From assembly GCF_057098645.1 (NCBI RefSeq), contig NZ_CM169472.1: a DNA stretch of 64,000 bases, one strand, 5' to 3'. The translations under genes were made by a program, and so were the position numbers. Shown here piece after piece: positions 9,152 to 11,495 of this stretch (the first letter of the stretch is position 1; each line of letters begins with the position of its first letter). The notes under the pieces were generated by a model that had not been told where the DNA came from, made no database searches, and was given only the letters and a program-made list of their open reading frames with translations.

Positions 9152-9412
9152 CTGTAAAATGGTTGCTGAATTATAGCTTGTTCGATTTTTTTCGCCAGCA
9201 TCAATTACCCTGAATTGATTACTGAATTACTTGTGATGTTACGCCGCTTCGTTGTGGATTGCAGTAGCATTGTTCCTAAGTATGGCTCCATTTTTCCAGG
9301 AATGGTCGCAAATCTACTCCCTCCGTTCCGGCAATCTAAAGTTAATCTTTTCCACATTAACAATATGGTGATTAATCCTGTCGATATCGACGGAGCTTTG
9401 TCCTTTTTCATT

Positions 9413-9421
9413 CACCGCATG
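9413..9421. repeat. IS1 target-site duplication, left copy (caccgcatg)
   Basis: 9-bp direct repeat identical to 10190-10198, immediately flanking the IS1 ends. Confidence 0.9.
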
Positions 9422-9476
9422 GGTGATGCTGCCAACTTACTGATTTAGTGTATGATGGTGTTTTTGAGGTGCTCCA

Positions 9477-9752
9477 GTGGCTTCTGTTTCTATCAGCTGT
9501 CCCTCCTGTTCAGCTACTGACGGGGTGGTGCGTAACGGCAAAAGCACTGCCGGACATCAGCGCTATCTCTGCTCTCACTGCCGTAAAACATGGCAACTGC
9601 AGTTCACTTACACCGCTTCTCAACCCGGTACGCACCAGAAAATCATTGATATGGCCATGAATGGCGTTGGATGCCGGGCAACCGCCCGCATTATGGGCGT
9701 TGGCCTCAACACGATTTTCCGCCATTTAAAAAACTCAGGCCGCAGTCGGTAA
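9477..9752 (+). CDS. insA: IS1 InsA (transposition inhibitor / N-terminal part of InsAB' transposase)
   Basis: 91 aa [43 protein letters not shown]... recognised as IS1 InsA. Confidence 0.95.
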
Positions 9753-10174
9753 CCTCGCGCATACAGCCGGGCAGTGACGTCATCGTCTGCGCGGAAATGG
9801 ACGAACAGTGGGGATACGTCGGGGCTAAATCGCGCCAGCGCTGGCTGTTTTACGCGTATGACAGGCTCCGGAAGACGGTTGTTGCGCACGTATTCGGTGA
9901 ACGCACTATGGCGACGCTGGGGCGTCTTATGAGCCTGCTGTCACCCTTTGACGTGGTGATATGGATGACGGATGGCTGGCCGCTGTATGAATCCCGCCTG
10001 AAGGGAAAGCTGCACGTAATCAGCAAGCGATATACGCAGCGAATTGAGCGGCATAACCTGAATCTGAGGCAGCACCTGGCACGGCTGGGACGGAAGTCGC
10101 TGTCGTTCTCAAAATCGGTGGAGCTGCATGACAAAGTCATCGGGCATTATCTGAACATAAAACACTATCAATAA
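9671..10174 (+). CDS. insB: IS1 InsB reading frame (expressed as InsAB' by -1 frameshift)
   Basis: 167 aa ORF overlapping insA in the -1 frame; sequence recognised as IS1 InsB. Confidence 0.9.
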
Positions 10175-10189
10175 GTTGGAGTCATTACC

Positions 10190-10198
10190 CACCGCATG
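10190..10198. repeat. IS1 target-site duplication, right copy (caccgcatg)
   Basis: Identical to 9413-9421. Confidence 0.9.
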
Positions 10199-11495
10199 AA
10201 CATTTGCAAGAGACAGCAGTGTTTCTTTTTTCGCCATAAACACTCCGCGAACGTCTTTGCGCATGTCAAAGTTCATACTCAATGCGGGTCCAACTGAGGA
10301 TTCCTGCATCACCTTGATATTTCGCATAAAAAGATGTTGCGGTTTGTTGTGTAACTCCAGCGACGCACGCTTCATCTCAATGTTAGTCAGTGCTACAAAG
10401 GAGAGAGCATTCCCGGCGGAGATTTGGATGCCGCGCAATTTATAAGCAAGATGGGTGTTATCCAGCTGAATATTATTCACTCGGAAATTTTGCGGTATCG
10501 AGAGATATTTGCCTTTAATTACCCCATAGCCGATTAACATCCCGGCGCTATTAATCATTTCAATATTATCAATCACAAAATTGTCACAACCGTAAATAGC
10601 GACCGTGGCGTTATCAATACCTGCTTTCTTACTGAAATCCGGCGTGATATTGCGGGCTTTGATATTACGAATAACAAAATGTTTACCATTTTTAACATGT
10701 ATCAACTGCCGACAATCCGATCCCGTGATATTTGCCACGACAAAGTTTTTCACTGCCTGGTCTTCCGGGTAGTTATTATCATAAGTACTCCCCGCAAGGC
10801 CTATGCCAATGCCCCAGTTGATTTTGCCATTAGTACAGTTGATGCGCTCGATGACATGGTCGGAGATCAAAATATCACGGTCGTTAATCGCCACGTTCCA
10901 TTCAATGGCGTCGCCCTGTAAGTCGCTGAACTTACAGTTGGTGATGTTGGCACCGATAATCTGGTTATGAAATCCCTGGCGTAAGATGGCGTAATTAGCG
11001 TGGCTAACGGTCAGGTTATCGATGGTCAGGTTGCGCATGACCCGTTTGTTTTTGCCGCCGATATAAATCTGCGTTACCGGACCAAAGCCGCTCATCGCCA
11101 GCCCTTTGATGGTGCAGTCAGAGCCTCGCACATCCAGGGTGATGTTATGCATACTGCCGCCCTCCTCCCCTGTCACCTGGCTGCCGTCCTGTAAGACAAA
11201 TCGCCCTCTGCCGTTGCCGCGCAGGCTTCCAAGGATGTGTAACGTTTTGCCGGGAGGGATGAAGATGCCGGTGTTGATATTGTCACAAACGAATCCAGCA
11301 GGCACGACGACCGTTTGCCCTTCGCTGAAGGCTTGTTTAAATGAGGCGATCCAGTCGTGAGGGTTGTAGTCGTTAATGTTAACGCTTTGTCGGGCGGGAA
11401 GTGCGCGAGCGAAAGGGGTATGGAGGAAGGCAAGCGCCGAGCTTGCCGTCAGGAAGGTGCGTCGGGAGAGTGTTTTAAATGGCATGCGTTCTCCT

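Follow-up and report, generated by a model that had tools for sequence, protein, structure and literature searches.

What interrupts the terminal gene of the wca (colanic-acid) operon in this chromosome, and does the interruption matter for the biology of its carriers? The stretch analysed here, hereafter the window (64,000 nucleotides of contig NZ_CM169472.1, assembly GCF_057098645.1), is Escherichia coli O145 DNA, and its closest complete genomes are those of RM12761 and RM13516, both from the Belgian ice-cream outbreak of 2007. In the window, as in its annotated relatives, the genes run wza...wcaK-wcaL-wcaM-galF, and the last of the operon, wcaM, is split by an insertion sequence. This arrangement is very probably explained by a genuine IS1 transposition into wcaM of an O145 (O145:H28-type) chromosome.

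The insertion falls directly after codon 432 of wcaM. The 5' part of the gene (codons 1–432; 10190–11485, minus strand), which includes the putative Tat-type signal SRRTFL, matches the NF007517 family with 957 bits over positions 1–435 of 464 and runs on into the element, forming a chimeric reading frame of 458 amino acids (10109–11485, minus strand) that consists of 432 WcaM residues and 26 IS1-encoded ones; PF27800:WcaM is on record for the chimeric product. The displaced 3' remnant on the far side (9314–9421, minus strand), recognised from its sequence and annotated in RefSeq as a partial pseudogene without an N-terminus, comprises the HAV copied by the duplication, the final 32 codons and the TAG stop. 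Deletion of 9422–10198 in silico yielded a continuous 464-codon open reading frame, and the restored WcaM matches NCBIfam NF007517 (TIGR04004) with 1024.3 bits (cutoff 808) over positions 1–464 of 464. The first-pass annotation had described a complete 768-bp IS1 between two copies of a 9-bp duplication, truncation of the terminal gene after codon 432, a frame ending in 26 foreign residues and the native 32 C-terminal codons and stop left in the remnant; all of these coordinates held up. Its expectation that removing the insertion would restore a wcaM-length frame was also borne out, and comparison with other wcaM genes showed that the wcaM locus without IS1 and one repeat copy is 100% identical to the empty site of 22 genomes.

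The element itself (9422–10189, plus strand, 768 bp) is a complete IS1B-type isoform, identical at 768/768 bp (100%) to copies that carry the annotation 'IS1-like element IS1B family transposase' on many E. coli chromosomes and plasmids, and is the commonest IS1 isoform. Its left terminal inverted repeat, IRL (9422–9444, plus strand; GGTGATGCTGCCAACTTACTGAT), and right terminal inverted repeat, IRR (10167–10189, plus strand; GGTAATGACTCCAACTTATTGAT), are imperfect: once reverse-complemented, IRR agrees with IRL at 18/23 positions. A promoter-like CTGCCA-16-TATGAT on the plus strand (9429–9456) overlaps IRL and points inward to insA. This gene (9477–9752, plus strand) encodes 91 amino acids with zinc-ribbon and HTH domains, scores 41 bits against NCBIfam NF050000 (IS1/IS1595 Zn-binding domain; cutoff 28) and also covers positions 1–81 of the transpos_IS1 profile. 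The insB' frame (9671–10174, plus strand), which encodes the DDE transposase part, accounts for positions 76–199 of the same profile (NF033558; 143.8 bits, cutoff 100). Joining the two at the A6C motif (AAAAAAC, 9728–9734, plus strand), the site of −1 programmed frameshifting from insA to insB', gives an InsAB' of 232 amino acids, and the same element bears a 'programmed frameshift' mark in RefSeq. The copy is complete and looks functional: both inverted repeats are in place, as are insA, the A6C site and insB'. Directly flanking it are the two copies of the target-site duplication, CACCGCATG, at 9413–9421 and 10190–10198; the chance of a 9-bp identity at two fixed positions is ~4e-6. The 768-bp length, imperfect 23-bp inverted repeats, insA/insB' organisation, A6C frameshift and 9-bp duplication are shared in full with the IS1 family as represented by IS1A/IS1B of E. 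coli K-12 and IS1R of plasmid R100.

The allele is already known, being present in RefSeq annotation. At both junctions, RM12761 (NZ_CP007133.1) and RM13516 (NZ_CP006262.1) are 100% identical to the window; these O145:H28 strains share with it the point and orientation of the insertion, the 9-bp duplication and the flanking genes, and in both genomes RefSeq already lists an 'IS1-like element IS1B family transposase' and two wcaM pseudogene fragments, the 5' fragment of RM12761 bearing the remark 'wcaM ... incomplete; missing C-terminus'. In the O145 genome papers the insertion is not discussed in the main text and is touched on only in supplementary tables: Cooper et al. 2014 (PMC3893438) list full-length WcaM as RM13514-specific (Table S1) and count four IS1 copies in RM13516 and two in RM13514 (Table S4). 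The perfect junction matches suggested that the window might be RM12761 itself, which was ruled out by base-by-base comparison: over window positions 1–48200 there are 22 substitutions relative to RM12761/RM13516, four of them inside IS1 and one in wcaM (E265K), together with 2 single-base indels; the window also has one ibs/Sib repeat unit fewer than these two genomes and departs from RM12761 just past cyaR.

The chimeric protein of the window itself, looked up as an exact sequence, gave no match because of the window-specific E265K, and carriers were therefore sought with the RM12761 chimeric variant and the window's NeuC variant in its place. The identical RM12761-type chimera was found on 16 public contigs, and the window-type haplotype on at least 24 contigs, with the same repeat/IRL junction in all five that were inspected. 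The carriers fall in two sub-lineages that differ at ~20 sites per 48 kb, whereas the empty site is kept, at 100% identity over 600 bp, by 22 other complete O145 genomes, indicating that the insertion is a lineage marker and not private to one strain. The first-pass annotation had taken the intact duplication as a sign of a recent event. That logic is weak, because a stretch of 18 bases would go without mutation for very long and the insertion is shared by RM12761, RM13516 and many draft genomes of two sub-lineages; what stands is that the event is recent relative to the 22 empty O145 sites. In OU349848.1, a truncated IS1 with foreign genes after it was initially taken for an IS1-mediated rearrangement and was rejected when the junction proved to be a scaffold gap of Ns. 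A draft contig (L010) has a different left flank, which could reflect a genuine rearrangement or be chimeric.

At four positions (9768, 9814, 9817 and 9876) clustered in 109 bp, the IS1 of the window departs from the copy that all other carriers have, the other strains' copies at this locus being distinguished from it by P98Q and T134M in InsAB'. This patch calls for a further event, either gene conversion or an assembly or polishing artefact. It could alternatively signal that IS1 entered the same hot spot a second time, independently, and that the window does not have the copy inherited with RM12761, a reading favoured by the identity of the window's element to the most common isoform. However, the duplication, insertion point and orientation are all identical, drafts with the window's flanking haplotype (L015) hold RM12761-type IS1 alleles at the same site, and four differences in 109 bp are what a short gene-conversion tract, or polishing with reads that stem from other copies of IS1, typically leaves behind, which makes a second insertion extremely improbable. 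IS1 is multi-copy and draft contigs often break within it, so its placement in wcaM might in principle be an assembly error; this chance is practically negligible given that both junctions and the duplication occur in two independently finished genomes and recur in several drafts and Logan read assemblies that originate from different projects. A genuine, inherited transposition into wcaM thus remains the preferred reading.

What would be lost with the end of the gene depends on the nature of WcaM. Its SRRTFL motif occupies residues 7–12 and is matched weakly by Pfam TAT_signal (E 0.4), which was the sole Pfam-A match of the restored protein, PF27800 evidently being newer than the library scanned; Salmonella WcaM is listed as a Tat substrate (PMC8262268). 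For the AF2 model of WcaM (pLDDT 92.4), the top PDB fold match by Foldseek was the Phi92 colanidase (6e0v, TM 0.77), which was also matched by the WcaM family profile (E 1.9e-68, profile positions 23–455) and by WcaM itself in phmmer (E 2.5e-24). Homologues were present in 241 phage records, many annotated as colanic-acid-degrading. From the model and these alignments we infer that WcaM is a right-handed beta-helix protein with a putative Tat signal and a full-length homologue of the phage Phi92 colanidase tailspike. The closest characterised relative, Phi92 gp150 (PDB 6E0V), shares with WcaM the right-handed beta-helix fold and an H-V-E motif. Unlike the phage protein, WcaM is monodomain, carries a putative Tat signal, is encoded by the host in a biosynthetic operon and has no tailspike adaptor or trimerisation domains, and its colanidase activity is putative. 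A literature search on wcaM (mucoidy, hydrolase, periplasm, depolymerase, colanidase) found no functional study or established biochemical role of WcaM, no enzymatic step in repeat-unit building assigned to it and no link between WcaM and colanidase. Its role is probably the periplasmic trimming or processing of colanic acid.

In terms of this fold, the insertion would remove the last two beta-strands and a conserved N-F motif and put 26 unrelated residues in their place; the AF2 strands near the break lie at 423–432, 440–442 and 449–453. Loss of the last two strands makes loss of WcaM function likely: the chimera would be prone to misfold, leading to rejection by the Tat pathway or to degradation, and is probably inactive, as judged from the model and from conservation. 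It could still be objected that the insertion, though real, has no functional effect, either because a protein with 432/464 residues still folds, is exported and works, or because WcaM is dispensable and the allele a neutral lineage marker. About 93% of WcaM is retained, including the most conserved, central block (residues 150–350) with H263 and E265, and the truncated protein lies well over the 808-bit equivalog cutoff with its 957 bits. Moreover, the allele persists in dozens of isolates, outbreak strains among them, and is thus not strongly deleterious, and the literature found assigns WcaM no step in building the repeat unit. Against this, terminal caps are generally required by beta-helices, and the segment that is lost (the C-terminal 32 residues) is occupied in 88% of distant WcaM homologues and is modelled as the final strands of the helix, with residues 433–460 at pLDDT 92–97. 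In Salmonella, delta-wcaM strains serve as colanic-acid-deficient mutants (PMC8171120). The window has, in addition, accumulated the E265K substitution (codon 265, AAA (Lys) for GAA (Glu); 10693, minus strand) at a near-invariant site that adjoins the invariant H263 and is Glu in 24/25 family members (96%). The change fits relaxed constraint after inactivation; as a single substitution in one genome, it could also be chance. On balance, an insertion without consequence for WcaM is unlikely, and loss of function is the reading that we carry forward.

Effects beyond wcaM were also considered. The next gene downstream, galF (8246–9139, minus strand), is intact, and IS1 lies 283 bp from its annotated ATG (9139) and 271 bp from a GTG in the same frame farther upstream (9151), in line with the ~270 bp given in the first-pass annotation. 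Downstream of galF, the O145 O-antigen operon has a JUMPstart/ops leader untouched by the insertion (8007–8045, minus strand; Rfam RF01707, 52.6 bits), with its ops core GGCGGTAG at 8011–8018; the corresponding leader of the wca operon lies upstream of wza (33062–33100, minus strand; RF01707, 57.3 bits; ops core at 33066–33073). Polar effects had been called unlikely, and this is plausible insofar as the O-antigen operon has its own leader. Yet a terminator scan and RNA folding of the spacer detected no terminator between wcaM and galF, so read-through from wca into galF is possible.

IS1 is known to be polar and able to create hybrid promoters. The insertion might accordingly act mainly in cis, altering galF and O-antigen expression through a block to read-through or an outward promoter, and be retained for that reason; in the absence of a detectable intrinsic terminator, wca transcripts could normally reach galF, and IS1 also occurs in the wcaM-galF spacer of other genomes. 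Several observations run counter to this idea. A promoter scan found no promoter-like site facing galF from the IS1 end or the junction, the O-antigen genes are served by a JUMPstart/ops leader of their own beyond galF, and IS1 lies beside this part of wcaM in only 7/5426 complete genomes, giving no sign of recurrent selection. Furthermore, RfaH/ops control of the wca operon (PMC9765446), to which the RF01707 match also points, should blunt Rho-dependent polarity. A mainly cis-acting insertion is therefore very unlikely. The other wca genes are intact, and galF and the O-antigen operon keep their own leader, so under the preferred reading of a knock-out of wcaM any phenotype should be limited to WcaM's own role.

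Insertion sequences are familiar in this part of the chromosome. Laboratory E. coli carry IS5 in wbbL (K-12) or IS1 in the O-antigen cluster (E. coli B), and, as in the window, a single element there knocks out one polysaccharide gene of the his-gnd-galF-wca region; those insertions abolish the O antigen, whereas the gene struck in the window is an accessory one within the colanic-acid operon. Another parallel is the variant-O89 E. coli 26561 and its relatives, in which IS1 likewise truncates wcaM at the boundary of the colanic-acid and O-antigen regions (PMC6128206); in contrast to that case, the insertion in the window is a simple one that has left the two flanks and the duplication undisturbed. 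In AR_0081, which resembles the variant-O89 strains, IS1 sits in wcaM and the wca operon is deleted up to yegH.

Taken by itself, the insertion is genuine but an ordinary gene knock-out that matters little beyond strain typing, for which the IS1::wcaM junction provides a clean, PCR-testable marker of one sub-lineage of the food-borne pathogen E. coli O145:H28, a branch that includes the 2007 Belgian ice-cream outbreak strains. The allele may represent a natural loss of function in a gene that is poorly understood, which would make its carriers ready-made natural wcaM mutants. The more useful by-product is the resemblance of WcaM to a host version of the phage colanidases, which yields a testable hypothesis for its role. 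That WcaM is a host-encoded periplasmic colanidase that trims or releases the polymer, and the IS1 allele a natural knock-out that became fixed in a sub-lineage of O145:H28 associated with an outbreak, is a tentative and distinctly doubtful proposition; if it were true, a measurable change in colanic-acid chain length or mucoidy would be possible, and with it a shift in how well the strains persist in food or cold environments, or in their sensitivity to phages that depend on colanic acid.

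Two copies of the direct repeat CACCGCATG (9413-9421 and 10190-10198) flank 768 bp that start with GGTGATGCTGCCAACTTACTGAT and end with an imperfect inverted copy of it (18/23 positions match). Inside the element, insA (91 aa) occupies 9477-9752 and the insB' frame 9671-10174; a -1 frameshift at the AAAAAAC motif (9728) fuses the two into a 232-aa InsAB'. Both insA and insB' are matched by NCBIfam transpos_IS1, which scores the DDE part in insB' (143.8 bits, cutoff 100), and the full-length element is 100% identical to copies annotated as IS1B family on numerous E. coli chromosomes and plasmids. 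The element at 9422-10189 shows every testable hallmark of IS1, and its coordinates and sequence agree with the first-pass annotation of a complete IS1 with both inverted repeats and an identical 9-bp duplication. Its target has the features expected of wcaM: in the chimeric ORF on the minus strand (10109-11485), 26 IS1-encoded residues are appended to 432 residues of WcaM, and the 3' remnant on the same strand (9314-9421) supplies, after the duplicated HAV, the last 32 residues of the protein and its stop codon, confirming that IS1 entered after codon 432 and displaced 32 native codons to its far side. Deletion of 9422-10198 in silico, the result on which the original claim depended, restored a 464-aa ORF matching the NCBIfam equivalog NF007517 end to end (1024 bits, positions 1 to 464). 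The disrupted ORF scored 957 bits (positions 1-435), a loss of 67 bits over about 29 positions that is near the whole-protein per-residue average. The finding is genuine, its original description is accurate, and as an IS1 knock-out, here of wcaM, it is ordinary.

Both 400-bp junction probes were recovered unbroken and with 100% identity in only 2 of 5426 complete E. coli genomes, those of RM12761 (ice-cream isolate) and RM13516 (patient isolate), both O145:H28 from the 2007 Belgian outbreak. Among the other complete O145 genomes, 22 have the empty site, matching its 600-bp reconstruction at 100% identity without a break; RM13514, RM12581, 95-3192 and CFSAN004176 (O145:H25) are among them. The window is distinct from RM12761: across window positions 1-48200 the two are separated by 22 substitutions and two indels of one base each. 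With RM13514 as outgroup, 15 changes fall on the window branch and 5 on the RM12761 branch; at about 8 more sites RM13514 has one allele and the window and RM12761 have another in common, which fits a common ancestor of the two that would already have carried the insertion. The exact chimeric protein of RM12761 was found in 16 contigs from several assemblies, and two such sequences, L010 (a contig of GCA_015676305.1) and L014, carry the window alleles at 13564, 16387, 17057 and 20262. At least 24 additional draft contigs encode the NeuC variant of the window; the five that were inspected all have the window's upstream SNPs, the same duplication/IRL junction and a contig break in or at IS1. Given this spread, IS1::wcaM marks a sub-lineage that has two or more branches and is no private event. 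Compared with RM12761 and RM13516, 7 of the 10 coding changes on the window branch (positions 1-48200) are nonsynonymous, affecting wzx, neuC, a cytidylyltransferase gene, wcaM, wcaK, wcaJ and wzc. Since several of them recur in many draft genomes, these are genuine variants, and they cluster in surface-polysaccharide genes.

The allele is already known. RefSeq annotates it in RM12761 and RM13516 as an IS1B-family transposase with wcaM as two pseudogene fragments, and it is implicit in published supplementary tables, which give full-length WcaM as an RM13514-specific protein (Table S1) and four IS1 copies in RM13516 vs two in RM13514 (Table S4; PMC3893438). The main texts of the O145 genome papers contain no discussion of the insertion, the allele being reflected in the supplementary tables alone.

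The intact duplication had been taken as a sign of a recent event. The insertion does appear to be young, but the duplication itself says little about age, because, at general bacterial substitution rates, its 18 bases should escape mutation for far longer than the lineage has existed; better evidence comes from flanks that are 100% identical to those of empty-site genomes and from the restricted distribution. The element itself differs from the same-locus IS1 of RM12761, RM13516, L010 and four other public carriers (L012, L013, L014 and L015) at four positions (9768, 9814, 9817 and 9876), all in the insB' region, within 109 bp, and translating into P98Q and T134M in InsAB'. Every other carrier examined differs from the window there, and the window copy has exactly the sequence of the commonest IS1 isoform; the patch looks like the result of gene conversion over a short tract, with another IS1 copy as donor, or else like an artefact of polishing.

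IS1 adjoins the affected part of wcaM in only 7 of 5426 complete genomes, so the site is no IS1 hot spot. Truncation of wcaM by IS1 has been reported in variant-O89 strains (PMC6128206). In TST3, TBE6, 027_SK3 and ABW_S38, IS1 lies a short way downstream of an intact wcaM; in TST3 (NZ_CP154406.1) it separates wcaM from gnd, with galF and the entire O-antigen cluster missing. In AR_0081 (NZ_CP027534.1), the IS1 inside wcaM borders on the yegH side, and the wca operon is deleted as far as yegH. TST3 and AR_0081 exemplify IS1-associated deletions at the wcaM boundary. L010 (JADAIL010000067.1) has the same right wcaM/IS1 junction; beyond IRL, inverse-autotransporter/invasin-like genes replace the wcaM remnant and galF, which points to a rearrangement mediated by IS1 or to chimerism of the draft contig.

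The rest of the wca operon (wza to wcaL) is intact and agrees with annotated relatives. One JUMPstart/ops element precedes wza (33062-33100); a second, at 8007-8045, separates galF from the first O-antigen gene and gives the O145 O-antigen operon its own RfaH-dependent leader downstream of IS1. We detected neither a terminator-like structure between wcaM and galF nor a promoter-like site facing galF from the IS1 end, and the insA promoter-like site (9429-9456) is directed away from galF. The suggestion that polar effects are unlikely is therefore plausible, but transcription from wca may read through into galF.

Elsewhere in the window, an Rfam algC RNA motif (RF02929, 78 bits) lies on the minus strand in the cpsB-cpsG spacer (18449-18498), upstream of the phosphomannomutase gene cpsG. 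Three Sib RNA/ibs toxin units (RF00113) are arranged in tandem at 48191-48997 and repeat about every 330 bp; the number of ibs genes at this site is four in RM12761 and two in RM13514, so the copy number varies among close relatives. Near the CyaR sRNA (62357-62442), alignment to RM12761 ends from about 62454, where that genome has a P2-like prophage (ogrK, late control D) that the window appears to lack or to replace with different content. Single-base length differences separate the window from the RM12761 and RM13514 assemblies at 17057 and 23884, and from RM12761 alone at 62446. All of these differences fall within G5 and T7 homopolymers in intergenic DNA and are possibly systematic errors in the older assemblies; at 17057, L010 and L014 have the window's length.

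In the library used, WcaM had a weak TAT_signal match and nothing else in Pfam-A; it contains an SRRTFL motif and is among the Salmonella Tat substrates (PMC8262268). A PDB sequence search returned a sole clear relative, the phage Phi92 colanidase tailspike gp150 (6E0V, E 2.5e-24), and a 25-sequence family alignment extended the match to profile positions 23-455 (E 1.9e-68). The AlphaFold2 model built from this alignment (pLDDT 92.4, pTM 0.89) is a right-handed beta-helix over residues 32-453, with 6E0V as its top PDB fold match (TM 0.77). Relatives number just 188 among 1.84 billion representative proteins, many of 600-1000 aa. Homologues are encoded in 241 phage records, many of them annotated as colanic-acid-degrading. 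This full-length homology, together with the phage records, suggests that WcaM may be a periplasmic colanic-acid hydrolase. No paper making the link to colanidase was found in the literature searched, nor did the papers found define a role for WcaM, which is merely named as the cluster's twentieth gene (PMC9143390); a Salmonella delta-wcaM strain serves as a colanic-acid-deficient mutant (PMC8171120).

In the model, the insertion point coincides with the last residue of strand 423-432. Of the residues lost beyond it, 433-460 have pLDDT 92-97 and form strands 440-442 and 449-453; a conserved N-F motif lies at 456-457, and the lost C-terminal residues are occupied in 88% of distant homologues. 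The chimera, without the end of the beta-helix, would quite probably fold poorly and be mostly lost. Only in the window does codon 265 (window 10693) encode Lys in place of Glu; this Glu, a candidate catalytic residue adjoining H263, which is invariant, occurs in 24 of the 25 family members and is also conserved in gp150. E265K would fit decay of an already dead gene, though it is a single change. IS1::wcaM is usable as a lineage marker and, given the relationship of WcaM to colanidase, strains with the allele would be valuable as natural mutants.
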